Below are positions 19,622 to 55,259 of a stretch of 64,000 bases of DNA, one piece after another. The position numbers and the translations under genes are program-made. Numbering within the stretch: the stretch's first letter is position 1; every line of letters begins with the position of its first letter. The notes under the pieces are model-generated. The model was given only the letters and a program-made list of their open reading frames with translations. It made no database searches and was not told the origin of the DNA. The stretch is taken from positions 1 to 64,000 of the forward strand of contig CAXXUA010000004.1 in NCBI GenBank assembly GCA_963663765.2, written 5' to 3'. Source of the stretch: Candidatus Poribacteria bacterium (GTDB lineage Bacteria; Poribacteria; WGA-4E; WGA-3G).

Positions 19622-19649
19622 ATAATAAGATATGTGCAGTAAAAATGAA

Positions 19650-20102
19650 GGGAATTATCTGACAATCCCAAGTCTTTAGGCTTGGGTCGAATAATGTAAA
19701 CTCGTGCGGGTGTATTTTAATTATTTGAGACAAGCAAGGCTCTGTAGTGTAATGCGAAATAACGTAGGTCGAACCGAAGTCCACACTGCGAACAAGAAGG
19801 CAGTCCACTGGCACCGTAGTTATGGGAAGTGTGCCTATAGTAAAACTTGGCGGATCCCCAGAGGGACAAGTTGCGGTAGACATCATCGCCCAAGACGCTA
19901 TATTATCAAGGAAATTAAGATACAGAGTGCGAATCAATCTTTTACCTCGCGGTAGGATATACCGAGAGCATAAACGCTTGTGGAGTCCGAGTAAGACCTC
20001 GCGCAGTTCAGGATAGAGGCACGAGAGACGGAAGCAGGAATCACACAGAGGAAAGTTATGTGTTTCAAAGAAGCACACGACTTTAGTCGTCGTGAGTATC
20101 AC
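19650..20102 (+). mobile_element. non-autonomous IS200/IS605 derivative (left end + omegaRNA scaffold + right end, no tnpA/tnpB ORF)
   Basis: Left-end hairpin CCCAAG...CTTGGG; last ~150 nt nearly identical to 53418-53565 (reverse complement); right-end hairpin CACGACTTTAGTCGTCGTG ending in TCAC; preceded by ATGAA. Confidence 0.85.
19950..20102 (+). ncRNA. TnpB omegaRNA (reRNA) scaffold, copy 1
   Basis: AACGCTTGTGGAG...GAAGCAGGAA...right-end hairpin, typical of tnpB 3' ends; 5' boundary approximate. Confidence 0.65.
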
Positions 20103-20111
20103 AAAGATAAC

Positions 20112-20471
20112 ATGGACAATATCATAATTCAAGGCATTAGGTTTCATGGCAATCATGGTGTGTCTGAGGAGGAACGTCAGGTCGGTGGACATTATGAAGT
20201 TGATGTAACTTTGGGATGTTCACTTGTAGATGCGGGTAAGTCAGACGCACTTGAGGACACAATTGATTATGCGAGTGTGATTGAGTTGATTGTTAATATT
20301 GGGACAAATCAATCATTTCAACTAATTGAAGCACTTGCAGAAACGATGGTATCGGAAATATTAGAAAAGTTTGCTGTTGAAAGCGTCCATCTTACTGTGA
20401 AGAAACTTCATCCCCCTATTGAACAACCGATAACCTATTTTGCAGTTGAGATTTGTCGTCATAAGGTGTAA
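20112..20471 (+). CDS. folB: dihydroneopterin aldolase
   Basis: MDNIIIQGIRFHGNHGVSEEER, SDALEDTIDY, LIEALAE, VKKLHPP. Confidence 0.95.
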   Translation: MDNIIIQGIRFHGNHGVSEEERQVGGHYEVDVTLGCSLVDAGKSDALEDTIDYASVIELIVNIGTNQSFQLIEALAETMVSEILEKFAVESVHLTVKKLHPPIEQPITYFAVEICRHKV

Positions 20472-20473
20472 GC

Positions 20474-21682
20474 ATGCAGCTAAAACAGTGGCTATGTATC
20501 GCTTTAGTATTACTATGTCATTTTCCCATTGGTGCAGATTCAGGTGGAAAAAAGACACAGCTTTTTACTGATTTGACTCCTGGACTCAATGTTTACCGTT
20601 ATGATTGGGATGCTGAAACATGTGCTATCTATGTCACTGAGATTTCACGTAACGACCCAACACTTAAGTTTGAAGTTGCACTTGCTAACGCTCAAGTGCT
20701 TGGTAAAGAGACTGTGCGATCTATAGCAAAACGGAGATCTGAACGTGGTGACCGTAGCGTTGTTGTAGCGGTCAACGGTGGCTTCGGAGTACTCGGGGAT
20801 ATGCGTGGTTATGGCGGTGTATTGGAAAGTTTGCATATCCAAGATGGTGAACTCATCACACAACCGACAGATTCCGATGCATGTTTTGGTGTTACTGAAT
20901 CTGGTGAATACCTGAGCAGTCCTGTACAAATGCAAGCTAACATCCAGATAGGAACGGACACTTTAGATATCGGTAGTATCAATCAACGTAGGCTGGATGG
21001 ATTTAAGGTTATTCTTTACACGCCAAGACTGGGTGAAAGCACACGGACGAATCGTCGTAGAGGTAAAGAAGTGTTGCTGAATGGTATTTCACTACCATTG
21101 ACCCCGGATTCTACTCACGACTTTAAGGTAGAAACTGTTTCAACAAATGGTAATAGCAAAATACCGAAGAACGGTGCAGTTTTGTGGATTAGTACTCAAG
21201 TTAAAGATCCAAGTGTGTCTCAACTGAAACCAGGTGCAAGCGGTAAACTCAAAGTAACACTATCACCACCAGAATGGAGTCAAGTAAAGCATGCAATTGG
21301 GGGTAGATTGAGGTTACTTAAAGACGGAAAAATCAATCAGATGCTTGTGGAAAAGCAGCAACAGGAGAAAAAACATGTTCCGGGTAAACGCAGCCAGGAG
21401 CTACATCTTAGCCATGAACCCCGTACTGCTCTTGGTTACAATGACGACACGCTCTTTTTAGTTGTTGCTGATGGTAGGCAGCCTAAGTATAGCACGGGAT
21501 TGACCCTCTACGAACTCTCCAGTATCCTGATTGAACTTGGGGCCACCGAAGCGATAAATCTTGATGGTGGTTCATCAAGCACTTTTGTCGTTAATGGAGA
21601 AGTTATCAACAAACCTTCTGGACGAAGTGAACGGGAAGTATTGAATGCGGTATTAATTACGAAGGAAATGATTCAAAACTGA
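20474..21682 (+). CDS. phosphodiester glycosidase family protein (NAGPA/DUF2233)
   Basis: Signal peptide, AVNGGF, HEPRTALG, VADGRQ, AINLDGGSSS. Confidence 0.88.
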   Translation: MQLKQWLCIALVLLCHFPIGADSGGKKTQLFTDLTPGLNVYRYDWDAETCAIYVTEISRNDPTLKFEVALANAQVLGKETVRSIAKRRSERGDRSVVVAVNGGFGVLGDMRGYGGVLESLHIQDGELITQPTDSDACFGVTESGEYLSSPVQMQANIQIGTDTLDIGSINQRRLDGFKVILYTPRLGESTRTNRRRGKEVLLNGISLPLTPDSTHDFKVETVSTNGNSKIPKNGAVLWISTQVKDPSVSQLKPGASGKLKVTLSPPEWSQVKHAIGGRLRLLKDGKINQMLVEKQQQEKKHVPGKRSQELHLSHEPRTALGYNDDTLFLVVADGRQPKYSTGLTLYELSSILIELGATEAINLDGGSSSTFVVNGEVINKPSGRSEREVLNAVLITKEMIQN

Positions 21683-21696
21683 TTTGGAGATTTAAT

Positions 21697-22740
21697 GTGA
21701 AGTATTTTAGGACAATTGGATGTCTTCTCTGTTTTTTGTTTTTGGTTCATATTAGTCATTCGGATGACAAACAACCAAAACTCTTAAAGGTAGTACCGCT
21801 GTCACAAACCGCAATACAACTCCAATTTGATAGTGAATTGGACCAGGAAGAAGCAGAAAATCTTGAACACTACACCATTACACCGAAGACCTCAATTGAA
21901 TTTGCATTCCTTGATGATCGTCCGAATCGTGTTTTGTTGATTACTTCAAAAATGGAGATCGGAAAAACTTACACGGTCACACATAAGAACCTGCAATCTG
22001 AGGTAGAATTTAAGCTGACTGCAGAAAACGAAATCACCTTTGGCTTTGGAAATTTAGTGACATTCTCTGGTGGTTTACAGGATACCAGTTTGATTGTCAA
22101 TAAGGACCGAAAAACCCACAACAATAACTATGGAGCTGAACCGAAATTGTTATGTAACCCGACAGGTACAGTCTTTTTCGTTGCTTTTGACTTATTTGAT
22201 GCGTTTGAAGATATTGGAATCCGTGATCCGAAGCAGGTATTAGATGCAACAATCAGTCTCCATGCACATAAATCTGACACAGGAGTTGCTCAATCAGTGA
22301 TACTCAGGCGCGTATTACAGCCGTGGCGTGAAGGCAGAGGTAAATCTGAGCGTGCAGAAGAGAACGAACTCACCTATAACAGTTCTCTACATCGAAATCT
22401 ACCTTGGAATAAACCGCCTGCACAAGCGATGTTGCGAGGCATTGATGGTGACAGGGCAAGCGATTACAATGGTTCTGAGGATGTAGCTCATCGAATTGAC
22501 GGTGTTTTTGAGATTAAGCCTGATGGTAAACGACATACTTTCAAGAGTGAGTTAATCACTGATGCAGTGCGTTATTGGGTTGCAAACCCGGATTATAATC
22601 ATGGTTATCTTTTTGCACTTCGCGATGGTACTGTACCCCTCGTATTCTCATCAAAAGAGAGTGTTGAAGAAAAACTGCGTCCGATGTTAACAATCCGATA
22701 CAAGACTCAATCTGGTACTGAAACTGATGTGTCTGAATAA
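21697..22740 (+). CDS. secreted DNRLRE-like domain protein with Ig-like N-terminus
   Basis: Signal peptide; QDT...NNYGA, VLQPWREG, ITDAVRYWVANPDYNHG, FSSKE...RPMLTIRY. Confidence 0.65.
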   Translation: MKYFRTIGCLLCFLFLVHISHSDDKQPKLLKVVPLSQTAIQLQFDSELDQEEAENLEHYTITPKTSIEFAFLDDRPNRVLLITSKMEIGKTYTVTHKNLQSEVEFKLTAENEITFGFGNLVTFSGGLQDTSLIVNKDRKTHNNNYGAEPKLLCNPTGTVFFVAFDLFDAFEDIGIRDPKQVLDATISLHAHKSDTGVAQSVILRRVLQPWREGRGKSERAEENELTYNSSLHRNLPWNKPPAQAMLRGIDGDRASDYNGSEDVAHRIDGVFEIKPDGKRHTFKSELITDAVRYWVANPDYNHGYLFALRDGTVPLVFSSKESVEEKLRPMLTIRYKTQSGTETDVSE

Positions 22741-22759
22741 GTCTTCGTCAAGTGTCGAC

Positions 22760-23881
22760 TTAACTTTTCTCAAGCAGAAATAGGAATTCACGGTTCGGTT
22801 TTTCTGCTGCTTTCACCCATTCATGTGTCCATCTCATACCTGCCATAACGTTTCGTTTGTAGTTCATTTCAACAACTGCAAGCAAGTTTCCGTTTTTTTC
22901 CAATACTTCATTTAGTTCTTCCGCAGTTGCGCGTCCACCTGAACTGTAAGACAGGATGATCCAACGCGCTTGTGTCATCTTTACCAACTTCTCTATAGCC
23001 TCAACTGCGATGAAACGTCCGTTTTTGTTATGTCGAAACTCCTCAAATACGGATGCAGCGTGTTGATCAGAAGAATCGACCCGTCGCTTTGCTTTGCCAA
23101 ACAAAACAGGTTTGTCATACAGGATAATGCTTTTCCAGAGATGGTAATAAGCTGCGTATCTCACACGAGATGGCGGCATCTTCTCATTGTTTGAACCGTA
23201 GGGGGGATCGAAATATGCAAGGTCTACAGAAATACGCGAGACAAGATCAAAGATGTCGGTTTGATATACCTCATGGTTGCCATCAGAAGTAAAGACTTCT
23301 GGCACTTCAAGGATGAGTTCTTTATAGGAACGCGGCGACCAGTCTTTGAGGTAAGCGGAAAAATGACCTAAGGTACTGTCCACCTTATCCAGTGCCAAAA
23401 TCAGACTTGTCAATGCCACTGCTTTCTCAACTGTATTTAGTTTTAGGTTCTCTATTTCCTCTCGTATTGCGTCTAATTTACGGGTATTGTGTAGCTGCCA
23501 TGGTTTTTTGAGACCATCTGCTTGGATAGCGTTGCCATCATTTGCAAGTCCACCATAGTGTTCTGTGAACCAACCATCTATCGGTGCTAAAACGTTTAAG
23601 TGGTCAATCAGGGGTTGATATTCAGATTGTGGTTTTGTGTTGAGAAGGTAGCAAGTTCCTAAAACTTCTGACCATGGGGCTATGTCATTGCATATAACGT
23701 TATACCCGAGTTTAGCGAATGATTGTGATACACGGGTTGAACCTGAGAAACCATCTAAAATTGTTTTTGCATCAACTTTTTTGGTGAGTTGGAGGATTTG
23801 TGGTATGAGTTTTAGTTTGGATCCGGCGTATTTTATGCCTTGTGTAGCAGGGATGTTGAGCCATGGAATCTTTTGTTGCAT
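22760..23881 (-). CDS. DNA adenine methyltransferase (D12 class)
   Basis: IKYAGSKLKL, LDGFSGS (motif I), YFDPPY (motif IV), ILSYS. Confidence 0.9.
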   Translation of the reverse strand: MQQKIPWLNIPATQGIKYAGSKLKLIPQILQLTKKVDAKTILDGFSGSTRVSQSFAKLGYNVICNDIAPWSEVLGTCYLLNTKPQSEYQPLIDHLNVLAPIDGWFTEHYGGLANDGNAIQADGLKKPWQLHNTRKLDAIREEIENLKLNTVEKAVALTSLILALDKVDSTLGHFSAYLKDWSPRSYKELILEVPEVFTSDGNHEVYQTDIFDLVSRISVDLAYFDPPYGSNNEKMPPSRVRYAAYYHLWKSIILYDKPVLFGKAKRRVDSSDQHAASVFEEFRHNKNGRFIAVEAIEKLVKMTQARWIILSYSSGGRATAEELNEVLEKNGNLLAVVEMNYKRNVMAGMRWTHEWVKAAEKPNREFLFLLEKS

Positions 23882-23885
23882 GGAT

Positions 23886-24851
23886 TTATGTGGGGTTTTC
23901 AGTCAATAGTTGCGATTGACTGACATCACCATTTCCATCCATTATGTCCTTTTCTGGATCATACAGACGGTATTCATTCTTTTTTATCCAAAAGTATCTA
24001 TCCTCACCTCTAGGATAGCTATGCCGAGAAGGGAAATCAACACAGCAACTTCTTAACCAATATCTTACTCTTTTCTTATCGTAACCAGGAAACATTACGG
24101 AAACGACCTGTTCAATGTCTTTGAGTTTAAACCTGACATTAATATCTCCCTTTGTAAATTCTTGTACTGCTTCCCATACCATTTGATGTGTCAGTTTTTC
24201 ACTCGACTTTCTTTTAGTTTTGATGGTAGCAACATTTTCATCACCAACTAATGTTTCCATACTGACAAGTCTTTCTCCTGCTTCCGTTTGGAAGGTTGAA
24301 ACATCTATACAACGAATGTCCATACTATGTGAAGTTCTGAGGTAACGACAAACACGTGCTACTCTTGCAGGTATATCTCCTGCTACAATATACAACCTTA
24401 AGTTCCGATTTAAAGGCGGTACCTCGTCAACTTCCAGAATCTCAAACACGTCCATGAAAACATCATTAAAAGTATTACCTTGGAATTCATCGCGGGTCTC
24501 AAAGTAAGCTTCGGCTATTTCATGAATTTGTTGCTCTGAGAGTTCATTTGCCCACGCGGCATACTCAAGTAGTTGTGCCACTACATCCCGCGGGGCGCGA
24601 TCCCTTTTCAGTTCGACGATAATGAGATTTCCTTCTGCATCAACACCGAGTAGATCTGGAAAGACAGTCCCTTCTTCATCTCTTGCACTCGGTTGTCTAT
24701 CAATCCAAAGGATGAGTTCGTCTTGAATGAGTGCCCAAGGACTGTTTTCAAGCCAGTCCTCCAGATAACTTTCAAGTTCCAGATCGGTTTCTTGAGCGAT
24801 GATAAGTTCTGCTTTGGATATGTCGTCGCCTTCTAATCTAAAAATAGGCAT
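23886..24851 (-). CDS. NucS/DUF91-like PD-(D/E)XK endonuclease domain protein
   Basis: LESYLEDWLENSP, PDLLGVDAEGNLIIVELKR, VVAQLLEYA; start placed at MPIFRL with RBS GGAG. Confidence 0.75.
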   Translation of the reverse strand: MPIFRLEGDDISKAELIIAQETDLELESYLEDWLENSPWALIQDELILWIDRQPSARDEEGTVFPDLLGVDAEGNLIIVELKRDRAPRDVVAQLLEYAAWANELSEQQIHEIAEAYFETRDEFQGNTFNDVFMDVFEILEVDEVPPLNRNLRLYIVAGDIPARVARVCRYLRTSHSMDIRCIDVSTFQTEAGERLVSMETLVGDENVATIKTKRKSSEKLTHQMVWEAVQEFTKGDINVRFKLKDIEQVVSVMFPGYDKKRVRYWLRSCCVDFPSRHSYPRGEDRYFWIKKNEYRLYDPEKDIMDGNGDVSQSQLLTENPT

Positions 24852-24855
24852 TGGT

Positions 24856-25125
24856 TTACACTTGTATCTCCAATAGGTCTGGAACGTGCTTATCTTCATA
24901 ATTCTCAACAAGGATACTGATGAATTCCATCACTGTTGCTAATAGGTGGTTCTCATTCTCCCCAACCACATCAATCAGGTCATCTAAGATTTTCAAAAGT
25001 TCTTGGTAATCACGTTCTGTCAGTGAGGCAAAGAGATGCATGTCATTTTCTCCGATTGCTTCAATCAGATTTTTCACGACAGTTGTTATGGACAGAGGGA
25101 TAGGCACAGTATTATGGTTAACCAT
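24856..25125 (-). CDS. HigA-like antitoxin N-terminal domain protein lacking the HTH
   Basis: ERDYQELLKILDDLIDVVGENENHLLA...LVENYEDKH resembles the HigA N-terminus. Confidence 0.55.
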   Translation of the reverse strand: MVNHNTVPIPLSITTVVKNLIEAIGENDMHLFASLTERDYQELLKILDDLIDVVGENENHLLATVMEFISILVENYEDKHVPDLLEIQV

Positions 25126-25152
25126 AGTCTTAATGAATTGTCTATTTCAGAT

Positions 25153-26016
25153 TTACCGTACGAAACAGGAAAGGAATTCGTGAGAACGTAATAGTCCTTG
25201 TGCTTCTGCTTCCCATGTTCGCCAATATCGGTAATCTTCTAACTCAACGCTGATAATACCGTCAAATCCTTCGTCTTCAAGCCGTTGGACTACCTTTAGC
25301 CAGTCTACAACGCCATCGCCGGGAATTGTGTAACGCCACCAATCTTCACCAAAACCGCGTGGACTGTGAAAACTCGGTCCCAAATTGCCGTGTAGATATA
25401 GTGCTTCCTCGTCAATAGCGGTATCTTTTCCGTGGACATGTTTAACGTAAGATGCAAATTCATTGAGTGCACGAATAGGGTCAATGCCGATTCTGACAAG
25501 GTGTGACGGGTCATAGTTGAGACCTAAGCCAGGGGATGTACATTCTTCAAACATTGCACGCCACATTTCAGGTGTGCATCCGAGTGCTGGGTATGTCGGC
25601 GCGCCGCCGGGCCAACCCTCTATTGCGATTGTGACGCCTTTGGAATCGGCGAATTCTGCAATGGGTGGTACGGTGTCTTTCCATATATCAAAGTTTTTTG
25701 CGCGTCCGAGGCCTGCATCTTCAGGGACAAAGACACAGAACATGATGTGAACATCGTTATCAGCTGCTGCTTGTATTGCTGCTTTTGCTTTCTCTGCACC
25801 TGATTTTTGTGTAGATTTTTTCGCGCTGAGGAGTTCGGTGGTACCGGGTAAATCTGCTGACCCGATTTCTAAACCAGCATCACGTGCAGTTTTTACAACT
25901 TCAGGGGTTGCTGCACCGATGTCAATTGCTTCAAATCCGTTATCAGCACACCATTTACAGAAATCTGCGAAAGGCATTTGACGTGCTGTGCCGGGTATAC
26001 GTAAACCTATTTTCAT
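25153..26016 (-). CDS. sugar phosphate isomerase/epimerase (TIM barrel)
   Basis: IAIEGWP, GLNYDPSH, HVHGKD, PGDGVVDW, ISVELED. Confidence 0.88.
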   Translation of the reverse strand: MKIGLRIPGTARQMPFADFCKWCADNGFEAIDIGAATPEVVKTARDAGLEIGSADLPGTTELLSAKKSTQKSGAEKAKAAIQAAADNDVHIMFCVFVPEDAGLGRAKNFDIWKDTVPPIAEFADSKGVTIAIEGWPGGAPTYPALGCTPEMWRAMFEECTSPGLGLNYDPSHLVRIGIDPIRALNEFASYVKHVHGKDTAIDEEALYLHGNLGPSFHSPRGFGEDWWRYTIPGDGVVDWLKVVQRLEDEGFDGIISVELEDYRYWRTWEAEAQGLLRSHEFLSCFVR

Positions 26017-26117
26017 ATATATTTTTCCTAATATTTGAACAGAGTAATTTCGTTTTCGCTATAAAATCGTGACCAGGAGGTCGCTCCTATTAATAGAAGG
26101 ATAAATTACAAATTTAA

Positions 26118-27338
26118 TTAATATCCCATAAGACCACAACAGCGGCGGCATACTGGCATCGGTCCGTCGGTGCTAATGGACTGACGGAATTTCACTGCTT
26201 TTTGATTGTTCCACATATCAACGACCTTATCCTCTTTAATATTTCCGATGATGTAGTCGTGGTAATCTCTGCATAGACTGACGTCGCCATTGCTATCAAT
26301 TTCCATAGTCATGAAGATACTGACACATTGGTTGTAACCGAAAGTCTGTTCATGGTCGGTATAGTATGTCTGGATTTCACCTTTTGAGTTTAGTCTTGGC
26401 ATCATAACAGGCGGGCATCGCTTGTGTTTTTCAGAGAGATTTTCCATTTCTTCAAACCTATCTAAAATAGCCCCGTGGTCAAAGTCATGCCATGTGCCAA
26501 TCCACCCATAATGTGTTTGTGGTTTGAATCCGAAGCGTCTCTCAAAGTCTTCTGTGTGTTCTTGGGCAGAATCAGCATCTATCCACCAAGTCAGATAGAA
26601 GATTTGCGCGTCTGCAAACTGGCTGGTGAACTTGTAAAGGTCTACGACAACATCAATGTTATACATTGTCACACAACTAAGTGGAATAATGTAAGGAAAC
26701 GACTGATTTCTGCGTTCTTTCTCAGCACTGAGAGTTTCCAATGCAGCTTTGACATCTTTGAAGTTGTCGTAGTTTTGAGAAACGCCTGGACGTTGCGTAT
26801 TGTGGATTTCTTCATTTGGACCGTCCACGCTTAGATAAATAATTTTACAAGTTTCCAGGATGTCGTCTGCCCATCTTGCTATGTTGGTGGCATTACTAAC
26901 AAGAGAGATAGGCATGCCTTTCTCTTTTATATAGTGCATTAACTCTATGATACCAGGGTAAAGCATAGGTTCACCACCCCAGATGTACCATACAGGTGAC
27001 CATCCTTCATCAACAATTTGGTCAACGAGGTTTTTATAGATTTCCACAGGTACTTCGCGCTGTTTTAGTTCTTTTAGCGATTGTCCGATAAGATACCCGT
27101 TGTCACCCCATTGTCCACAAGAATGGCAACGCAAATTACACATATCCGTAATACGCAGGCTTACTAACTGAATAGCATCACCTTTACCATGCTTTGCACC
27201 AAAAGGGTGTCGTAGATTAAATGATTCCTTTGCGAGTTGATAGCGCATGAATTTTCGCGATGTTCTCCAATCCTCCGACATTGCAGTCGCAAGTTGATTA
27301 ACAAGGAATCTTGATGAGATTCGACTTCTTAGTGCCAT
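26118..27338 (-). CDS. radical SAM protein with SPASM/twitch domain
   Basis: CNLRCHSC, WGGEP, C-terminal CVSIF...GDVSLC...IGN...CRRCC. Confidence 0.9.
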   Translation of the reverse strand: MALRSRISSRFLVNQLATAMSEDWRTSRKFMRYQLAKESFNLRHPFGAKHGKGDAIQLVSLRITDMCNLRCHSCGQWGDNGYLIGQSLKELKQREVPVEIYKNLVDQIVDEGWSPVWYIWGGEPMLYPGIIELMHYIKEKGMPISLVSNATNIARWADDILETCKIIYLSVDGPNEEIHNTQRPGVSQNYDNFKDVKAALETLSAEKERRNQSFPYIIPLSCVTMYNIDVVVDLYKFTSQFADAQIFYLTWWIDADSAQEHTEDFERRFGFKPQTHYGWIGTWHDFDHGAILDRFEEMENLSEKHKRCPPVMMPRLNSKGEIQTYYTDHEQTFGYNQCVSIFMTMEIDSNGDVSLCRDYHDYIIGNIKEDKVVDMWNNQKAVKFRQSISTDGPMPVCRRCCGLMGY

Positions 27339-27420
27339 TAATACTCCTTTTTCTTTCAGTAATATATTAGCTCATTTTCATCAAATGTATTTTGTATTTT
27401 CTGAACTCATTATGTTTTCA

Positions 27421-27834
27421 TTATGTTCCGTCATCAGGTTTCATGAGTGTAAGTGCAGCTGAATTGAGACAGTATCGTTTGCCTGTTGGTTCTGGTCCGT
27501 CATTAAAGACATGTCCGAGGTGTGCGTCACATTGACTACAAACGACTTCTGTTCGTGGCATGAAAAAGATGTTGAAATCTGCTTTTGACTCAATGCTTTC
27601 AGTTGAAATAGGATCCCAAAAACTTGGCCAACCTGTTCCTGAGTCAAATTTCGTGTCAGAGGTAAAAAGTGGATTTCCACAGCAAATGCAATGATAAGTG
27701 CCTTCTTCTTTGCAGTCGTGATATTTACCTGTAAATGCGCGTTCAGTACCTTTTTTTCGAGTTACTTTATACTCTTCAGGCGAAAGCTGTTCCTTCCACT
27801 CTTTTTCTGATTTCTTAATTTTTTCTACACCCAT
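27421..27834 (-). CDS. msrB: peptide methionine (R)-sulfoxide reductase
   Basis: [38 protein letters not shown]; start at MGVEK. Confidence 0.97.
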
Positions 27835-28004
27835 ATTTTCACTCCCAATTTTCTTGCTTTGTACTATCACATATTTTATCAAAAATTGCAAGGATGTTTA
27901 TATCTACTTATCTACTCATTAACATCAAGCACACATATACAGTCATAAATATACCTACTGAATGTGTGCAATAATGTCATTAGCTGGAATAATATTCCTG
28001 ATTA

Positions 28005-28164
28005 TACCATTTTCATGTGATAATGTCTCATTAGCAGCGGAAATCTGGTAGGAGCGACCTCACGGTCGCGACCGTGAGGTCGCTCCTACCGAAGAGAGTA
28101 ACCCCCTGCCAGTAAACATTAGAATTCCTTAATGAGACAAGATTTATTTGAATTTGAATTGGTA
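28005..28164. mobile_element. MITE family C (TACC...GGTA, TTA TSD) containing a perfect REP palindrome
   Basis: TTA at 28002-28004 and 28165-28167; GGTAGGAGCGACCTCACGGTCGCGACCGTGAGGTCGCTCCTACC at 28047-28090; about 90 bp shared in reverse with 48570-48650. Confidence 0.75.
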
Positions 28165-28168
28165 TTAC

Positions 28169-43093: not shown

Positions 43094-43102
43094 ATTTGTT
43101 AC

Positions 43103-46291: not shown

Positions 46292-46414
46292 ATTGCTATT
46301 TGCCTATGGATATAAAGCGTTATGTATTATTCATAGAAATTTGATTCCTTTTTTCATAAGGTGCATCCGTAATGGTGTTAATAGTGAAAATGCTTTGCAG
46401 ATAAAAGGAGATAC

Positions 46415-47299: not shown

Positions 47300-47342
47300 A
47301 ACTATCAAACATAGAACAGAAAGCAACTCATCAAGCGATCTG

Positions 47343-48113
47343 CTAATCTTCATTGAAATAGTTCAAGACTTTGGAGTGCAAAACACCATTTGTTGCGATC
47401 AGCGAATCAGTATCTTTCGTGATAGATTGTCCTTGTATATCTGTCACCGTTCCGCTTGCTTCTCGGACAATAACTGTAATTGCAGCGATGTCCCAAATGC
47501 TTATTGCTGCTTCAACCACTGCGTCCACTCTACCATTAGCTAGTAGATGATACATATAGAAATCACCAAAACCCCTGGAACGTGCTGCGTCGTTGATAAG
47601 ATAGTAAATCCCGGGGAATGTATCATTTTCTACAAACCATTTTAACCCACCGTGACAGATCATGGTGTCTGAAACTTGTGAGACATCGGATACCTGAATT
47701 GGTTCTCTGTTTAGGAATGCGCCATTGCCTTGTTCTGCATAGAGAAGTTCATTTAACAACGGTGCGTTTGATACACCAAGGATAAGTTCGTCATCTTTCA
47801 TCAAGGCAATCTGCGTGCCAAAAAATGGAATTTTGCGTATGTAATTTTTCGTTGCATCGATGGGATCAATAATCCAAGTATAGGGTGATGTTCCTTCCTG
47901 CATGCCGAATTCTTCTCCCATGAATCCGTGCTCTGGAAATACTTGTTTAATAGTTTCTCGTATTGCTTTTTCTGCATCGGTATCCGCGCGAGTGACTGGG
48001 GTTTCATCATCTTTTAGTTCAACTGTGATAGTATCAGTTGTATAGTATGAAGTAATAATATCTTCTGCATTTTTCGCTGCATCTAACGCGACGTTCAAGA
48101 AATCACTGGGCAT
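47343..48113 (-). CDS. inositol monophosphatase family protein (histidinol-phosphatase HisN-like)
   Basis: TPVTRAD, GEE, WIIDPIDATKNY, RSRGFGDF, WDIAA. Confidence 0.88.
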   Translation of the reverse strand: MPSDFLNVALDAAKNAEDIITSYYTTDTITVELKDDETPVTRADTDAEKAIRETIKQVFPEHGFMGEEFGMQEGTSPYTWIIDPIDATKNYIRKIPFFGTQIALMKDDELILGVSNAPLLNELLYAEQGNGAFLNREPIQVSDVSQVSDTMICHGGLKWFVENDTFPGIYYLINDAARSRGFGDFYMYHLLANGRVDAVVEAAISIWDIAAITVIVREASGTVTDIQGQSITKDTDSLIATNGVLHSKVLNYFNED

Positions 48114-48172
48114 AAATTCACCTCACAAAATAGATGGCCTGGATTTTTGTTCATATTTTAGCCTAAATACAT

Positions 48173-48532
48173 TCAACGTAACCAGCGAGTCACAGTTGTA
48201 AAGAATGATCTATGTTTAGCAACAAAACGGTAGATAAATTCAGACAACGGAGCATATCCAGGAAAGTTGTAGTAACACCATAGTACCAACCGATTATTCA
48301 GGACATAAAAAACAGCCTCTGCTCCAGACAGGACTTTCCCGTTTACTAAAACTAACTTCACTGAATTTTGGAACTCTGAGATTGATATATCTGGAAAATT
48401 AGACGCTACCTCTTGATATGGGGCATAGTCAACTCGATCTGCAGTCAAATGTTGCATTCGATTAACCCAATATCTACAAAATTCACAGTCTGAATCGTAG
48501 ACAAGAAGAGGTTTATTTAGTTGTGATTGCAT
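48173..48532 (-). CDS. DCC1-like thiol-disulfide oxidoreductase (DUF393)
   Basis: LVYDSDCEFC, YRFVAKHR. Confidence 0.85.
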   Translation of the reverse strand: MQSQLNKPLLVYDSDCEFCRYWVNRMQHLTADRVDYAPYQEVASNFPDISISEFQNSVKLVLVNGKVLSGAEAVFYVLNNRLVLWCYYNFPGYAPLSEFIYRFVAKHRSFFTTVTRWLR

Positions 48533-48638
48533 CAGTTCTATCTTCTGAATTTGCTTGATTCCCTTATAATTCCAATTTAAATAAATCTTGTCTCATTAAG
48601 GAATTCTACTGTTTACTGGCAGGGGTTTACTCTCTTCG

Positions 48639-48774
48639 GTAGGAGCGACCTCCTGGTCGCGACAGTTTTGATACATGGTCTCTATACGGTCGCGACCAGG
48701 AGGTCGCTCCTACCAACGCATAGAGAGGTCGCTCCTACCAACGCATAGAGAGGTCGCTCCTACCAACGCATAGA
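48639..48774. repeat. REP doublet followed by a 3 x 25-bp tandem amplification of the REP 3' half
   Basis: GTAGGAGCGACCTCCTGGTCGCGAC...GTCGCGACCAGGAGGTCGCTCCTAC; unit GAGGTCGCTCCTACCAACGCATAGA at 48700, 48725 and 48750. Confidence 0.88.
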
Positions 48775-48831
48775 GGTGTCACTCCAAACAGTCCAAGTGT
48801 GTAATTAATTCCATAGTTTACCATAGTATAA

Positions 48832-48919
48832 TACCAAATTAACGTAATTTATCTTTTTTCAACGGTAGGTGCGGTTTCCTAACCGCACACTTAGCAAGAC
48901 GACTCACGTTAATTGGGTA
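48832..48919. mobile_element. MITE family C (TACC...GGTA, TAA TSD) carrying one REP
   Basis: TACCAAATTAACGT/ACGTTAATTGGGTA; TAA at 48829-48831 and 48920-48922; REP GTAGGTGCGGTTTCCTAACCGCAC at 48865. Confidence 0.8.
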
Positions 48920-48926
48920 TAACAGA

Positions 48927-50156
48927 TTATTTCCATGCACACTTTATTTTAGCAATTGCTTCAACGACTTGGTCCATATCAGATTGAGTGCCAAGAAGTA
49001 GATTTTGGAATAACCAAACACTTTCCTTACAAACTAATTCTACATTTGGACATGGTAATGTACGAATAAGGTGTGGGTATTTTTCTGCGACATGTGCCAT
49101 TCCAGGTTCTTGCGATAGTGGAGAACGATAGCCGATTGAACAAGGTATACCTTCCGCAGACAATGCTTTAACAAAATCGTCTCGCGATTTACCACTGAAG
49201 CCATCTGAATTATACTTCATGCAGTAGAGGTGGTAGCCATGTTTTGTAACCCATGATGCTTGAATAGGTGGTGTTATCCCCGATATGTCGGTTAACGCAT
49301 TTGAGAGATATTTTGCATTTTGGTTTCGTTGGTCTGTTTGTGTCTCAAGGAGTTCTAACCGAACTGACAGCAGTGCTGCGAGGTATTCAGATGGTCGGTA
49401 GTTCCATCCTAAACGAGGATATTCCCACCTTGCACCGCCAGGTGCGCGTCCAACATTCATAAAAGCACAAACGCGATCATGTATGTCTTTATCATCTGTA
49501 GTAACCATTCCGCCTTCACCCGAAGTTAGATTCTTGGAGGATTGAAAACTGAAAGCACCGACATCTCCAAGTCCACCTACCTTTTTAGTATGATATTCTG
49601 CTCCATGTGCCTGTGCGCAATCTTCAACAATCTTGAGTTGATGTCGTTGTGCAATATCTTGTAATGCGCCCATTTCTGCTGGATGACCTCCAAGATGAAC
49701 AGGTAAAATTGCACGTGTTTCTGGTCGAATTGCTGCCTCAACTGCTTTGGGATCAATCGTGGATGTATCAGGACAAATATCAACAAATGCTACAGTGCAT
49801 CGTCGTTCTAAAACAGCACTTGCAGTCGCAACAAATGTATAATTTGGGACGATAACTTCCCCACCATGACTGAATCCATCAAGGTCGAGTGCACTTGCTA
49901 ATGCAGCACTAATTGCATCAGTTCCGTGTGGCATGAATAACGCGTAATTAGTTCTAGTGTATTTGGCATACTTTTCACAAAAATGCGGTATCATCTGTCC
50001 ACTGCTACCTTCGTTGCCACTCATATAGACATCGCGAAGAAGGGGTTCAATTATTGTATTCCATTCTTCAGATGAACGTAACGGCCAAGATAGCCACGGA
50101 TGGGTTTTTGTGTCCCGTACGGGTGTGCCACCCATTATTGCCAATTCGTTTGACAT
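48927..50156 (-). CDS. DegT/DnrJ/EryC1/StrS family PLP aminotransferase
   Basis: EVIVPNYTFVATA, ILPVHLGG, VEDCAQAHGA, FSFQSSKNLTSGEGG. Confidence 0.93.
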   Translation of the reverse strand: MSNELAIMGGTPVRDTKTHPWLSWPLRSSEEWNTIIEPLLRDVYMSGNEGSSGQMIPHFCEKYAKYTRTNYALFMPHGTDAISAALASALDLDGFSHGGEVIVPNYTFVATASAVLERRCTVAFVDICPDTSTIDPKAVEAAIRPETRAILPVHLGGHPAEMGALQDIAQRHQLKIVEDCAQAHGAEYHTKKVGGLGDVGAFSFQSSKNLTSGEGGMVTTDDKDIHDRVCAFMNVGRAPGGARWEYPRLGWNYRPSEYLAALLSVRLELLETQTDQRNQNAKYLSNALTDISGITPPIQASWVTKHGYHLYCMKYNSDGFSGKSRDDFVKALSAEGIPCSIGYRSPLSQEPGMAHVAEKYPHLIRTLPCPNVELVCKESVWLFQNLLLGTQSDMDQVVEAIAKIKCAWK

Positions 50157-50453
50157 ACAAAACTCCGAATATAAGATTAAATTCTTACCTTATACCTACC
50201 TTATACAAAATATAGCGTATCCTAATAGATGAATATTTGCAAGAATAAAAATAATTTTGATATATGTGAAAATTGATACTATAATTAAGAGATTGTAGAA
50301 CAAGCAGAATAGAGGCATTGATTTTAAAAATCATGTTTGTAGAAATTTCTACAATTGAATGTCTCTATAATCACTCAAGATATTTTTGGTATATTTGTCC
50401 AGACTTGAGTACCACTAATATGATACAGCGAAAATAATAATAGGAGATGAATT

Positions 50454-50981
50454 TTGAAAAAAACTTTTTTGATGCTGCTATTGATAGGATGTGCAGTAAT
50501 CCATTTTACAAGTTGTGAGAAGTCAGTGAGAGATTCTATGAATGATATTGTTGATTCATCAGAAACACCGACAAAGGACGACCCTGAAGCGTATACTGTA
50601 GCACTTGTGCAGTCTGCGATTGATCTTTTCAAAACGGAAGGTCGCGAAGTCGTTATAGCTTACCACAATGATCCAACCAATATTGATGGACAATGGTATG
50701 TGTTTATTACTGATGAAAACGATATTTTTCTTGCACATGCGCAGAATCTACAATTAGTCGGTACGGATCTTAAGGATGTCATTGGACTTGATGGATCCGC
50801 CCTTGGCGTAGAAATTGCGATGGCAACTGATGAAGGAAAGTGGATTGAGTATTTGTGGCCTAACCCAGAGAGCGGAAATGATGAAATGAAACGGACCTGG
50901 GCAATTAGGTATGATGGTTATTTATTCGGTTCGGGATATTACTCTCCAGTAAGTGATGATTCCGAATCTAAAGATAATTAG
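50454..50981 (+). CDS. stand-alone Cache-domain lipoprotein
   Basis: Lipobox FTSC; WYVFITD...LAH...LVG, GKWIEYLWPNP, YLFGSGYY. Confidence 0.75.
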   Translation: MKKTFLMLLLIGCAVIHFTSCEKSVRDSMNDIVDSSETPTKDDPEAYTVALVQSAIDLFKTEGREVVIAYHNDPTNIDGQWYVFITDENDIFLAHAQNLQLVGTDLKDVIGLDGSALGVEIAMATDEGKWIEYLWPNPESGNDEMKRTWAIRYDGYLFGSGYYSPVSDDSESKDN

Positions 50982-51003
50982 TTAGAAAAGTCATTTATAC
51001 ACA

Positions 51004-51049
51004 GATAGGAACAATAGCAAGGTACAAGTACCTTGCTATTGTTCCTATC
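51004..51049. terminator. perfect long palindrome between convergent genes
   Basis: GATAGGAACAATAGCAAGGTAC-AA-GTACCTTGCTATTGTTCCTATC (22-bp arms). Confidence 0.65.
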
Positions 51050-51080
51050 GTGATTTCACCTTCAAGAATTATTCAGAAGG

Positions 51081-52193
51081 TTATTTACTAAGTTTTTCAA
51101 TTAGAGCATCAATTTTCTTCTCTAATTTTTCAACTTTTTTCGTCAGTTTATCAATTGCATCAGAGGCATTAGACTTATTTGAAGACACGATCGAACCTCT
51201 TTTCAAGACCTTTATGTCTGCTTTATCCCCTAAATCTATAATAGGAATCAACGCAGAAGGATTTTCCTTGACAATTTCTTTTATCTTCTCAGCCAATTGA
51301 TCTACGTCGAGGTCTTCATCCTTGGCAAGTTCTGCAATATCCTTCGCGAATTCTGTAAGTCCTTTGGTTTTCTTGACATCACTTGCGACAATCACTGTAA
51401 CATTGTCGTCGTCAGAAACGATGACGTTTTCTAATTTACTATCTTTCAACAACTTCTTCAATTTCTCAGTTAACTGATCTTCAACAAGGTTTTCCTCCTT
51501 AGTGAGTTCAGTAATTTTCTTCATTAACCCCGTTAGATCTTTCTCATTTTTGATGACTTTGGTGACAACGATTGGTTCAGATGTAATGACTTTTACATTA
51601 TCATTGTCAATATCAAAGATTGAATGTAAATCAAGATTCTTCACCAATTCCTTTATCTTTTTTTCCAAAGATGCATCATCAAGACTTTCATCCTTGATGA
51701 GATCCTTGATTTTTTCCACGAATTCCTGCAATTTCTCTGGATTTGTAAGAACTTTAGATACATCAGTTGAAGTTTTTACTTCAACTTTTACATCTTCAAT
51801 GTTCTCTAAGTTCTTTAACATCTTAGAAAGTTTTTCTTTAAGCTTTTTTTCGTCAAGTAACTCATCTTCTGAAAGCTCTTTAAGTCCTTCCATAGACTCT
51901 GTTAACTTGTCCAAGACTTTTTGAACATTTTTATCAACCTCTTTCTTTTCTTCATCAGTAAGGTCTTCATAGGATTTAGTTTCTTTCTTTTCTGGAGTGG
52001 TTTTAGTATCAGCATTTGCTTCAGTGTCAGCATTTGCTTCAGTGTCAGCATTTGCTTCAGTGTCAGCATTTGCTTCAGTGTCAGCATTTGCTTCAGTGTC
52101 AGCATTTGCTTCAGTGTCAGCATTTACTACTAACAAAGCCATTCCAAACGATAAGAAAAATGTGAGAATAAAAACTAAGCATTTAACATTCAT
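51081..52193 (-). CDS. secreted Lys/Glu/Asp-rich repeat protein
   Basis: Signal peptide, ADTEAN repeats, about four helical repeats of the L.KDE.L....L.EKIK type, C-terminal coiled coil; RBS AGGAG. Confidence 0.7.
   Translation of the reverse strand: MNVKCLVFILTFFLSFGMALLVVNADTEANADTEANADTEANADTEANADTEANADTEANADTKTTPEKKETKSYEDLTDEEKKEVDKNVQKVLDKLTESMEGLKELSEDELLDEKKLKEKLSKMLKNLENIEDVKVEVKTSTDVSKVLTNPEKLQEFVEKIKDLIKDESLDDASLEKKIKELVKNLDLHSIFDIDNDNVKVITSEPIVVTKVIKNEKDLTGLMKKITELTKEENLVEDQLTEKLKKLLKDSKLENVIVSDDDNVTVIVASDVKKTKGLTEFAKDIAELAKDEDLDVDQLAEKIKEIVKENPSALIPIIDLGDKADIKVLKRGSIVSSNKSNASDAIDKLTKKVEKLEKKIDALIEKLSK
52009..52125. repeat. in-frame 18-bp VNTR (6.5 copies, ADTEAN)
   Basis: TCAGCATTTGCTTCAGTG x6 plus a half copy, all identical. 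Confidence 0.97.
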
Positions 52194-52348
52194 TTTAATC
52201 TCCTAATCTATTACATGAAAAATATATTTAATACATAACTTTCCAATAGTTGGTCCGATTAAGAACATTTTATAAGAAAATTATTCTAATGAATATCTAT
52301 ATCTTGTTTTATACACCAAATAGTGTAAAAAGTTCCATTAATTAATTA

Positions 52349-53428
52349 TTATTTAAATTTGTTGTCAAAAACTAATTCTTGAATCTTATCTACAGCTTTT
52401 TCTGTATCTTGAAGTTGGTTATTCGGCGTTTTGCAGTTTAGTTCTTTGATTATTCGTTTTTCTAATTCCATAAGTTTGCACTGGTTTACAATTGAATGAT
52501 TTTCCATATATTCATAGATGCTATACCTTTTTGGTAGTTTCTTTCTTTTTTGAGTAAGCGATAGAACGATCACTTTCCTGCCACTACTTGCTGCTTCACA
52601 TACCATAGAAAAACTATCCGCACTGACAATCAGTAGTTCACTCATAGCAAGTATTGCTTGATATGGATCGTCAAGTTCAGAAGGTGTGTCAGGTTCAACA
52701 AAGAGCGGACACCACTCAGCATCTTCTAATTTTGACTTCAAGTAAGAATTTACTACTAAAGGAGTTCTGCGGGAGGTGGTCATCAAAAAATGAATTTGCA
52801 TTTTTTCAGCAACCGTTTTGCAAATATTCCACAGTGGTTCCGCATCTTCAATTGTAATAGTTTCGTGTTTGTCAGTTCCCCCAATTAATACACCTATACA
52901 TTTGTCCTTATGCAGATTCAAAGTTTGTAGAAGATCGTCTTTTACAGTATCAAGTGCATCCGGTGAAATTGGGTTTGGAACACCAATTGTTTGAATAATA
53001 TTTTCTCGTGTATATGCTTTATCGGAATAGAGTTTTGGTATGATAGCAAGGTCAAAATGTCGTATACCGATTGGTGATGGTCTTAGACAGGTGACCGATT
53101 TGGCATTAAGGGTTTTGCACAGAAGTAAGTTAATTGCTCCTAATGATGATCCTGTTGATAGAATTATGTCGATCCCTTTGACTTTTAATAATGTGTTGTA
53201 TGAATGGGGAGTCAGGCACCACTTAAACAATTTGTGGATAAAGCCGGAAGAAAATGATATTCCTTGAAAAACAGACATGAATAATCGTAATAAATTATCG
53301 CGCCATTTTGCTCGAAATTCAATATCAACCCATTCCACACTACAATCAGGTATTTTTTGTAGTATACCTAACGATTGTTTATAATGACCAGGTTTTTTGT
53401 CACTTAAGACAAGTATTGTGATACTCAC
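52349..53428 (-). CDS. ELM1/GtrOC1-family putative nucleoside-diphosphate-sugar protein, 5' end interrupted by an IS605 element
   Basis: ILVLSDKKPGHYKQS, FDLAIIP, GVLIGG, TTSRRTP, VSADSFSMVCEAASSG; native ATG appears to lie at 55193-55195. Confidence 0.8.
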   Translation of the reverse strand: MSITILVLSDKKPGHYKQSLGILQKIPDCSVEWVDIEFRAKWRDNLLRLFMSVFQGISFSSGFIHKLFKWCLTPHSYNTLLKVKGIDIILSTGSSLGAINLLLCKTLNAKSVTCLRPSPIGIRHFDLAIIPKLYSDKAYTRENIIQTIGVPNPISPDALDTVKDDLLQTLNLHKDKCIGVLIGGTDKHETITIEDAEPLWNICKTVAEKMQIHFLMTTSRRTPLVVNSYLKSKLEDAEWCPLFVEPDTPSELDDPYQAILAMSELLIVSADSFSMVCEAASSGRKVIVLSLTQKRKKLPKRYSIYEYMENHSIVNQCKLMELEKRIIKELNCKTPNNQLQDTEKAVDKIQELVFDNKFK

Positions 53429-53565
53429 GACGACTAAAGTTATGTGCTTCTTTGAAACTCATAACTCTCCTCTGTGTGATTCCTGCTTCCGTCTCTCGTG
53501 CCTCTATCCTGAACTGCGTGAGGTCTTATTCGGACTCCACAAGCGTTTATGCTCTCTGTCTATCC
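53418..53565 (-). ncRNA. TnpB omegaRNA scaffold, copy 2
   Basis: Runs from the tnpB stop to the right end; near-identical to 19950-20102. Confidence 0.7.
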
Positions 53566-54635
53566 GAAAGCGAGGGTTCTTAGGTTGATTGCAGCATTTA
53601 TGTCTCTATCTATTTGATAGTCGCATTGACTGCAATGATACGTTCTCTCTGATAGCGTCAAATCATCTTTCTTGTGTCTACAACGACTACAAGTTTTACT
53701 TGAAGCATAGAATTGCGGTGCTTGTAATACAGGTATTCCGAAAGCATCTGCTTTCGTTTTTAGCTTATTGAGAAACCCACCTAACGCTGAATCCGATAAT
53801 GCCTTCGCGAGTTTTCTATTCTTTAGCATGTTCGTTATTTTTAGTGTCTCAATGCTGATAGTAGATGCAAGGTTGACGATCTCTGTAGTTGCTTTGTGGT
53901 GTGCATCATTTCGGATACAAGCGATACGATAGTGGATACGTTCTAACTTGTGTTTCTGCTTGAACCAGTTTTTTGACTTGAAAACACGCCGACTCAACTT
54001 GCGTTGTTCCCTCTTTAGTTTTCTCTCATAGCGTTTCAGAGGTCTTGGATTCTCATATTTCGTGCCATTACTCAAGGTGGCAAGTGTGTTGATGCCTAGA
54101 TCTATACCGATAACAGGGTGCGTTGAATTGTCAACGACTTCGGTGTCCTCTGTTTCTACAGTGATAGATATAAACCAACGATGTGCTGTCCTTGAAATCG
54201 TCACGCTGGTAATCTTCCCTACAAAACGCAATGCTTGACGCATTTTGACCCAACCAACCTTAGGCAACCGGACCTTCTTGCCTTCAACTTTCACAGATTG
54301 TACGTCTGTTGTCCATGTGTCCCGAATCCCACGCTTTTTGAATCGAGGAAACCTCGCACGTTTGCTAACCCAATTCGTAATCGCTTGACCCAAATTCTTG
54401 ATCGCATACAACGCAGCTCTTTGGTCTTGTGAACGTGTCCACTCATAACGCTTTTTCGCTTTGTTGAAGTTGTTATTAAGGGTGCGCCACGACTGGAAGT
54501 TATCATTATCTAATCCTACATTAAATCTGACAACGGTTGATTATACGCAAAACGAGCATAACCACATTGTTGGGAAAACCATGTGCGTTGTTTGTTGTTC
54601 GGATTCAATGTAATCTTGTGTGTTTTGTAGGGCAT
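53560..54635 (-). pseudogene. tnpB: RNA-guided endonuclease TnpB with one frameshift near 54523
   Basis: MPYKTHKITLNPNNKQ...ARFAYN; one base missing in GAT-TT-AAT; then RuvC GIDLG, SIETL and DRDINAAINL plus zinc finger CSRC/CSQC. Confidence 0.9.
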
Positions 54636-54716
54636 ACCTGACTCCTGATAAGATGCTGACCCCCTCGTCAAAGGTGTGGCAGGTGTTGACGCACCTACCA
54701 CAGAGTCAGTCTTATT

Positions 54717-54746
54717 ATTATACCACAACTTTAGGGAAAATATCAA
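54717..54746 (-). promoter_or_regulatory. sigma-70 promoter for tnpB
   Basis: TTGATA-18 nt-TATAAT with TG extension. Confidence 0.6.
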
Positions 54747-54795
54747 GCGTTTTTTGACCCGAGGGTGGGTAAAGTTTTTGTAGAAACCCTATTAT

Positions 54796-55001
54796 TATAG
54801 TGGATTTTAGAATTATTTTTTGCACTATCAGGTGTAGGAGGGAACTCCGATTCCCGACTATCAAGGCGTTCAGTCGCGATTCGGAGATCGAAATCAAGTA
54901 ATCAACGGTATGAATACCTTATGGTATTCCCCGGGTATGAATGCCTATTGGCATTCCCCGCCTACAGAAAAAGTGTAAACTTAATTGTATATTTCACTAT
55001 A
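54796..55001. mobile_element. MITE family D (TATAGTG... ends, TA-flanked), nested in the family-B copy
   Basis: TATAGTGGATTTTAGAATTA ... TAATTGTATATTTCACTATA; contains a REP doublet at 54834-54965. Confidence 0.65.
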
Positions 55002-55059
55002 AAAGAAGTATCTAAAGTTTCTATCAAAGTTTGCTTCACGTAAGGGAACTGTGGACATC

Positions 55060-55122
55060 GTAGGGGCGAGGTTTCCTCGCCTGCGTAATACCTTTGCTCG
55101 GGCAGGGAGTCCCCGCCCCTAC
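55060..55122. repeat. REP doublet (GTAGGGGCG family)
   Basis: GTAGGGGCGAGGTTTCCTCGCC ... GGGCAGGGAGTCCCCGCCCCTAC. Confidence 0.75.
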
Positions 55123-55259
55123 ACACAGTAACCAAAACTTTACACACCCTTGACCCGAAGCTAAAGGCTTGGGATTGTCATTTAATTCCCTTCATCTGTT
55201 TTTTCGGACTAATATGGATATTGATTACTACATATCTTGAATTGAGGGTTGCAAATTAT

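Follow-up and report, generated by a model that had tools for sequence, protein, structure and literature searches.

What happens to a host gene when a transposon lands on its start codon? The question is raised by a 64,000-nucleotide stretch of a Candidatus Poribacteria genome (assembly GCA_963663765.2, contig CAXXUA010000004.1), termed the window, in which two insertion sequence (IS) copies each begin directly after the pentamer ATGAA. The original prediction, made from the letters of the window, was that ATGAA is the shared target of two IS605-type elements, that ATGAA (or TGAA) doubles as the transposon-adjacent motif (TAM) of their TnpB nuclease with the right flanks as guides, and that a motif containing ATG draws insertions toward gene starts. 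The window corresponds to G000:C4:1-64000, where G000 denotes its genome (6.35 Mb, 15 contigs). The two copies are very probably members of one non-autonomous, tnpB-only (IS1341-like) lineage of the IS200/IS605 family together with its gene-less derivatives. This TnpB-element family is referred to as family A, and two other IS200/IS605 families in G000 as families B and C.

Target motif and element boundaries

Copy 1 starts with GGGAATTATCTGACAATCCC after ATGAA at 19645-19649 on the plus strand and copy 2 with GGGAATTAAATGACAATCCC after ATGAA at 55195-55191 on the minus strand, the common start immediately 3' of ATGAA being GGGAATTA. Both are closed by the tail ...GTCGTCGTGAGTATCAC, at 20102 (+) and 53418 (-), past which the first bases are AAAGATAACATGGACA and AATACTTGTCTTAAGT, respectively. 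The outer flanks are unrelated to each other and no target sequence is duplicated. The description of the termini underlying the original prediction was accurate in all of these respects, and its guide strings are the actual right flanks, their role as guides being predicted. The features required at this point are the following.

19645..19649, plus strand: target and predicted TAM ATGAA of copy 1 (TGAA core 19646-19649); the same ATGAA ends the empty site of a congener, G016
19650..20102, plus strand: copy 1, a gene-less non-autonomous derivative of 453 bp made up of the left end, ~255 bp of diverged filler and a putative omega-RNA scaffold, with no tnpB
55191..55195, minus strand: target and predicted TAM ATGAA of copy 2, the ATG being the original start codon of an Elm1-family gene
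53418..55190, minus strand: copy 2, a decayed tnpB-only element of 1773 bp
52349..53428, minus strand: Elm1-family open reading frame (ORF) of 359 aa that opens at the element GTG at 53428-53426 and reads MSIT-ILVLSD...

Both sites are empty in G016, where the sequence from GGGAATT to TCAC is absent and ATGAA is retained. With the junction marked by a slash, the empty site matching copy 2 reads ...AAAACAGATGAA/AATACTGGTCTTAAGTGAC (in short form ...AAAACAGATGAA/AATACTGGTC...) and that matching copy 1 reads ...GTGAAAATGAA/ATAAATGAAGATGGAC (in short form ...GTGAAAATGAA/ATAAATGAAG...). At the copy 2 site G016 accordingly continues as ATGAA/AATACTGG..., with the translation MKILVLSDKKPGHY. Since these empty sites read ATGAA followed by flank, ATGAA is host target DNA and the element extends exactly from GGGAATT to TCAC. 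The two sites show insertion 3' of a fixed motif of 4-5 nt without target-site duplication, as in the IS200/IS605 family, and the trace of mobility that they provide is a presence/absence polymorphism between species only.

The flanks collected from further copies bear out a common motif, although the pentamer varies. In G000 all 12 family-A left ends are found 3' of TGAA (8 ATGAA, 4 TTGAA), and the 12 right ends comprise 11 TCAC and 1 TTAC, with flanks that differ from the very next base. A search of 40 genomes of the genus for the exact pattern of the left end, GGGAATTNNNTRACAATCCC, gave 152 occurrences in 17 genomes (58 in G003, 51 in G049), as compared with 0 occurrences of the reversed pattern that was used as control. 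TGAA preceded 149 of the 152 exact matches; of the other three, one lies at a contig edge, one is in G013 and one, in G049, reads ATGGA. A looser search allowing up to 2 mismatches returned 136 rows outside G000, of which 93 are 3' of TGAA by hand count. The remaining 43 all carry 2 mismatches except one with 1, and several of them represent the same host sequence across genomes.

Upstream pentamers were tabulated for 155 left ends fetched from 11 genomes other than G000. The first 46 were picked among TGAA-flanked rows and the other 109 came from G003 and G049 (95 being all remaining exact matches in these two genomes and 14 the first G003 rows of a search). The pentamers were ATGAA in 94 cases, TTGAA in 30, GTGAA in 22, CTGAA in 8 and ATGGA in 1, which gives a composition at position -5 of 61% A, 19% T, 14% G and 5% C. 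When start-codon sites were set aside, the share of A at -5 was still 61%. Of the shared motif ATGAA, it is the TGAA core that is invariant, the leading A being preferred and not required. The 82 non-start family-A sites also had A at +2 in 65% of cases and at +1 in 45%, versus a background of ~30%, a possible extension of the target preference past the pentamer.

Insertions on start codons and the right-end GTG

Upon rejoining the flanks of copy 2, the sequence becomes ATG AAA ATA CTT..., the start of the Elm1-family gene that is intact in G016. At such sites the ATG of ATGAA is the start codon, and its last two bases belong to a Lys or Asn codon. The frequency of such landings was evaluated with a criterion set beforehand, by which a site is start-like if the rejoined ATG opens a frame of 150 codons or more that is preceded by no more than 40 open codons. 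The 41 of the 155 fetched left ends without a recognisable right end inside 2.7 kb were excluded. Two null rates were computed, both from G000 alone: the background, at which 1218 of 23380 ATGAA sites are start-like (5.2%), and a tolerated-site null of 21%, for which start-like sites were counted against a total made up of these and of the sites lying outside any 120-codon open frame. The start-like ATGAA sites were distributed as follows.

G000: 3 of 8
First batch, nine other genomes: 9 of 24
Independent second batch, all exact G049 left ends and the remaining G003 ones: 19 of 50
All sites outside G000, with nine sites shared by G003 and G049 merged: 27 of 71
All sites including G000: 30 of 79 (38%)

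The 27 of 71 correspond to P = 7e-17 versus the 5.2% rate and P = 9e-4 versus the tolerated-site rate. Only 3 of 35 sites with a flank other than ATGAA were start-like. Element length also differed, as 17 of 28 elements of at least 700 bp were located at starts versus 10 of 43 shorter ones. Because the favoured target contains ATG, insertions are often placed on start codons and are co-oriented with the gene, and the bias toward ATG-AAx starts that was originally foreseen is evident in the pooled sites. This is the least expected point of the analysis: the target motif of a transposon overlaps the start codon, and more than one third of the ATGAA-flanked insertions fall exactly on gene starts, including those of housekeeping genes.

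Host genes hit at the start include those encoding MurB, RNase HII, a short-chain dehydrogenase (domain from residue 9), a TolC-like protein, a ThrC-like PALP enzyme, CtaA, TruD, LplA, the small subunit of acetolactate synthase, a GFO/IDH/MocA oxidoreductase (domain from residue 5) and, in G000, a kinase-phosphatase. G048 has only one MurB_C match in its whole genome, and it is at the start of this gene that the element sits. The Elm1-family ORF of the window matches Pfam Mito_fiss_Elm1 (E 3.6e-43). The present ORFs at start-hit genes all begin with (M)SIT, and Pfam domains begin at residues 5-19 of these MSIT ORFs; by their sequences, the start-hit ORFs are real genes with true N-termini. A G003 locus, L089, was considered as the same gene as the Elm1-family ORF and was ruled out, its Pfam match being Laminin_G_3.

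The common N-terminus originates in the element. The right-end tail GTG-AGT-ATC-AC (GTGAGTATCAC, 11 bases) was invariant in 12 aligned right ends, and its GTG is always in frame with the start-hit gene because ATGAA (5) and the tail (11) both leave a remainder of 2 modulo 3. The open frame of the MurB ORF contains no ATG, GTG or TTG ahead of the right-end GTG, and no Met is found among the first 45 residues. Five start-codon insertions are common to G003 and G049, with flanks mostly 95-100% alike and elements 98-99% alike. The ratios of nonsynonymous to synonymous substitution rates (dN/dS) of their downstream genes were 0.15, 0.34, 0.26, 0.95 and 0.20, a modest indication that selection still acts on most of these genes in the presence of the element. 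Copy 2 has a strong promoter-like site ahead of tnpB, and no terminator-like site was seen on its strand before the right end, so that read-through from the element into the gene may be possible.

The right-end GTG may be used as a replacement start. We tentatively propose, as a possibility short of a probable account, that the lineage could be adapted to start codons through the combination of the ATGAA target with an in-frame GTG tail, so that proteins would begin with MSIT in place of MK or MN. A single transcript carrying tnpB, the guide RNA and the gene would then be driven by the host promoter, by an element promoter or by both. If this is true, insertion would be nearly harmless, the element would be hard to delete when the gene is essential, and it would stay expressed. 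If the GTG is used, a selfish element would here have a novel means of offsetting the damage of its own insertion and of borrowing host expression. No description of start-codon landing with a built-in in-frame start was found in the literature searched, in part by titles and abstract openings; the start-codon habit looks new, and the core of the element is an ordinary new member of IS200/IS605.

TnpB, element ends and transposase supply

The internal anatomy of the two copies is made up of the following features.

19667..19686, plus strand: left-end hairpin of copy 1, CCCAAGTC-TTTA-GGCTTGGG, from alignment and covariation
19945..20102, plus strand: omega-RNA-scaffold-like region of copy 1, conserved and common to full-length copies
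20074..20094, plus strand: right-end hairpin of copy 1, CAC-ACGAC-TTTA-GTCGT-(C)-GTG with a one-base bulge, from covariation
20099..20102, plus strand: element-internal end motif TCAC (transposon-encoded motif) of copy 1, as in 11 of 12 G000 right ends
20103..20118, plus strand: predicted 16-nt guide of copy 1, AAAGATAACATGGACA, by the TnpB paradigm
54761..55151, minus strand: nested unrelated short genomic repeats of ~390 bp between the left end and tnpB of copy 2
54717..54746, minus strand: promoter-like site TTGATA-18-TATAAT upstream of tnpB in copy 2, 11 of 12 matches with a TG extension, a consensus match only
53560..54635, minus strand: tnpB pseudogene of copy 2, with a 1-nt deletion near 54525
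53418..53575, minus strand: omega-RNA-scaffold-like region of copy 2 together with its right end, two disrupting substitutions lying in the right hairpin
53402..53417, minus strand: predicted 16-nt guide of copy 2, AATACTTGTCTTAAGT

Copy 1 has a twin at G000:C4:1134513-1134965, also of 453 bp, which is the only other place where its filler was found, and has relatives at 80-83% in G003 and G013. In both twins the two parental ends are kept and the coding region is gone, as in gene-less IS200/IS605 derivatives, and elements of 254-465 bp are present in other genomes. By its appearance, copy 1 can be mobilised and might provide a guide. In copy 2 the RuvC and zinc-finger motifs are still legible in a 283-aa C-terminal frame. 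Element positions 40-430 match hundreds of other loci and other full-length copies align only from 428; disrupting substitutions are present in the left as well as the right hairpin. Copy 2 looks dead on account of its broken tnpB, degenerate hairpins and nested repeats. Neither copy is a complete IS605 element, copy 1 being gene-less and copy 2 a decayed, tnpB-only element.

The repeat units nested in copy 2 are ~45-100 bp long and occur hundreds of times in G000, partly in tandem arrays (e.g. G000:C4:1083000-1083530 and C5:723160-723850). Copy 1 sits 9 nt upstream of a folB-like (dihydroneopterin-aldolase-like) ORF that starts at 20112 (+) and begins MDNIIIQGIRFHG..., its identity being judged by eye, and cuts off the upstream region of this ORF.

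Intact versions of the protein are encoded elsewhere in G000, where four 1376-bp family-A copies carry intact 358-aa TnpB ORFs, one of them at G000:C4:532148-533523 with its ORF at 532305-533381; repair of the frameshift, envisaged originally as a step toward a cleavage assay, is therefore unnecessary for obtaining an intact TnpB. Pfam identified OrfB_IS605, Cas12f1-like_TNB and HTH_OrfB_IS605 in the 358-aa protein, which also matched the ISDra2 TnpB structures 8bf8, 8exa and 8h1j (E 1.3e-45) as well as 8iaz (3.4e-48). Its GIDVG, IETL and DRDINAA motifs align with the D/E/D positions of the RuvC domain of ISDra2 TnpB. The four paralogs thereby show RuvC, a zinc-ribbon TNB, an N-terminal helix-turn-helix (HTH)/WED part and the D-E-D triad, the window copy being frameshifted, and by homology the family-A protein is a true TnpB.

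By analogy to other IS200/IS605 elements, the TAM of the family-A TnpB is predicted to be TGAA with A favoured at -5, and the right flanks of the two window copies are the predicted guides. According to Nakagawa et al. (PMC10097598), ISDra2 TnpB has the TAM TTGAT and a 16-nt guide. Transfer of the TAM from ISDra2 via its contact residues was attempted and is uninformative: the residues are not conserved, and TAM reading is therefore not transferable by homology. No mention of TGAA was found in the TnpB papers of the literature searched, one survey paper included. A compact 358-aa TnpB with a ~158-nt scaffold and a short predicted TAM would be a candidate small genome editor.

The element has a left end with GGGAATT..., a 17-nt linker and an 8-bp hairpin with a TTTA loop, and a right end with a bulged hairpin followed by AGTATCAC; between them lie the internal promoter-like site, the 358-aa TnpB and the conserved, putative omega-RNA scaffold of ~158 nt. 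In the left hairpin, CCCAAGYN-TTTA-NRCTTGGG, 12 cells were changed on both sides among 16 sequences, and in the right hairpin, CAC-ACGNN-TTTA-NNCGT-bulge-GTG, 8 cells among 12 sequences; 0 of 500 shuffles scored as high in either case. Both ends accordingly carry subterminal imperfect hairpins in place of terminal inverted repeats, as IS200/IS605 elements do. The 158 nt before the right end are 78-97% conserved across species and contain 6 compensated pairs in the RNAalifold consensus fold. Rfam returned 0 matches, both for the whole window at gathering thresholds and for 19600-20150 in E-value mode.

In the transposition cycle that these ends suggest, by analogy to IS608, ISDra2 and ISGst, a Y1 TnpA acting in trans would cut the left end 3' of TGAA and the right end 3' of TCAC. 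The top strand would be excised as single-stranded DNA while the flanks are rejoined, TGAA to the right flank, and the single-stranded circle would be pasted 3' of another TGAA without duplication. TnpB, guided by an RNA ending in the first ~16 nt of the right flank, would then cut the donor joint with TGAA as TAM, and recombination with a sister copy would restore the element at the donor site.

The transposase would have to be supplied from elsewhere, as tnpA is absent from every family-A copy examined. The lack of an element-encoded Y1 HUH TnpA is expected for the tnpB-only subgroup and makes family A non-autonomous. PF01797 matched 4 strong and 2 weak places in G000, the strong ones being in the tnpA+tnpB family C, whose copies are listed here.

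G000:C5:687426-689178: family C (tnpA+tnpB, 1.75 kb)
G000:C5:549662-551411: family C
G000:C3:286513-288266: family C
G000:C5:352867-355941: family C, interrupted by a 1316-bp IS

Family C, with the flank motif TTAA(C), the right end ...GGGTACTATGAC and end hairpins CCCC...TTTA...GGG, is a candidate source of trans-acting transposase for families A and B; its TnpA, e.g. in the copy at G000:C3:286513-288266, has 152 aa. Family B is tnpB-only, with ~20 copies of 1426 bp that are ~99% alike and a tnpB 74% identical to that of family A; it was probably recently active, as the likeness of its copies indicates. Its junctions were read from BLAST-anchored alignments, in which left ends lie 3' of TTATC (19/20) or TTATA (1/20) and the right end is ...GGGGAGTATGTCAG, e.g. 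at C4:79010 (-). By eye, the hairpins of families B and C are shaped like those of family A: a TTTA loop closes a 5-bp top, which a one-base bulge or mismatch separates from a 3-bp foot. This likeness makes trans-mobilisation by the family-C TnpA plausible.

A hybrid element was also observed at G000:C3:94584-95972 (-): its left end, after TTGAA, is of family A and its right end (GTCAG) of family B, and its tnpB shares ~84% identity with the family-A gene. A Y1_Tnp match, weak at 42 bits, was found in a 252-aa open frame at G000:C4:621661-621987 (+), a locus (L005) that adjoins long tandem repeat arrays (about 621070-621557 and 622111-623931) and may be a repeat-associated tyrosine transposase.

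Alternative explanations and comparison with known systems

The motif next to the left end is invariant, as expected of element-internal sequence, and ATGAA or TGAA might on that ground be regarded as the first part of the element and hence as uninformative on target and TAM. This is already contradicted and can be given almost no credence, given that the two orthologous sites in G016 retain the pentamer without anything from GGGAATT to TCAC, that at 30 sites a conserved host gene has this ATG as its start codon and that all four bases occur at -5. It is somewhat less far-fetched, yet still unlikely, that TGAA is the motif of the transposase while the TAM of TnpB is different, longer or looser, or TnpB has lost its nuclease activity, in which case the TAM prediction would fail although the target motif is right. 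The excess of A at +2 hints at specificity past the pentamer and the residues that read the TAM in ISDra2 are not conserved: Y52, S56, K76, F77, Q80, T123 and N124 correspond to W50, N54, Q72, R73, L76, a gap and E112 here. On the other side, TnpA and TnpB read overlapping motifs in the IS200/IS605 elements that have been tested, four paralogs retain an intact zinc finger and intact RuvC triad motifs, and the scaffold RNA region is conserved with compensatory changes.

It is also possible, if likewise no better than tentative, that the association with start codons reflects survivorship: the GTG would have no role, insertions inside genes would have been purged, and the genes hit would be dispensable or started elsewhere. 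The excess over the tolerated-site null is modest (27/71, P = 9e-4), the GTG lies within the lower stem of the right-end hairpin with no Shine-Dalgarno-like sequence seen at the usual distance before it (tnpB has AGGAG), and the dN/dS of 0.95 at one of the five shared insertions is near 1. Survivorship is more difficult to reconcile with the genes concerned, which include the sole murB-like gene of G048 and other conserved enzymes with intact full-length frames, with a MurB ORF that offers no start codon before the GTG and no early Met, and with dN/dS values of 0.15-0.34 at four of the five insertions shared between species. Nor does pure purging predict the enrichment of longer elements at starts. 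The three points just named on the GTG and dN/dS, the derivation of both null rates from a single genome and the loss of the ISDra2 contact residues weigh against the interpretation favoured here, and so do the following. Family A is without its own tnpA, and its mobilisation by the family-C TnpA is a conjecture from analogy. The four intact copies are only 92-94% alike, so that recent activity in G000 is at most a possibility. In contigs from four sponge-associated RNA-library runs of two studies, parts of tnpB and of the scaffold are covered, and the sequence runs on beyond the right end into other flanks; these contigs show neither strand nor ends, may include DNA and were not counted as evidence of expression, and uncovered stretches carry no information. 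Finally, under an IS608-style rule that pairs the target with the four bases preceding the left hairpin on its 5' side, family A (TGAA with CAAT) is a misfit, whereas families B (TTAT with AAAA) and C (TTAA with AAAT) fit by eye; the rule was not used.

Several characterised systems are comparable with family A. IS608 of Helicobacter pylori, the founding model of the mechanism, with the target TTAC and the end TCAA, resembles family A in its subterminal hairpins and in insertion 3' of a 4-nt motif without duplication. ISDra2 of Deinococcus radiodurans is alike in whole-length TnpB homology, in a guide RNA (predicted for family A) that is made from tnpB's 3' end plus the right end, and in the absence of target duplication. 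Its TAM TTGAT resembles the (A/T)TGAA found here, differing in the last base (T there, A here). Unlike family A, however, ISDra2 carries its own tnpA and encodes a TnpB of 408 aa as compared with 358 aa, with TAM-contact residues that family A does not conserve. ISDra2 is not known to have a start-codon habit.

A functional analogy only is provided by IStrons, in which an IS605 or IS607 element is combined with a group I intron. IStrons lessen the damage of landing in a gene by self-splicing from the mRNA, and family A would do so by a proposed replacement start codon; there is no intron here (Rfam, 0 hits).

A similar arrangement is that of ISGst from Geobacillus stearothermophilus. According to Meers et al. 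(PMC10055086), TnpA and TnpB share the TAM, the end motif is TTCAC, the donor joint is cleaved, and one TnpA serves several IS families along with gene-less derivatives. Common to both hosts are related families with different TnpB or IscB, gene-less palindrome-associated derivatives, and for each clade a TAM (predicted here) and an end motif (TTCAC there, ATCAC here). The TAMs described for ISGst are AT-rich, whereas the one predicted here contains G and overlaps ATG, and function has been shown there and is deduced here. With three IS200/IS605 families that have different motifs (TGAA, TTAT(C) and TTAA(C)) and with gene-less derivatives besides, G000 mirrors the Geobacillus arrangement of one transposase and many passengers.

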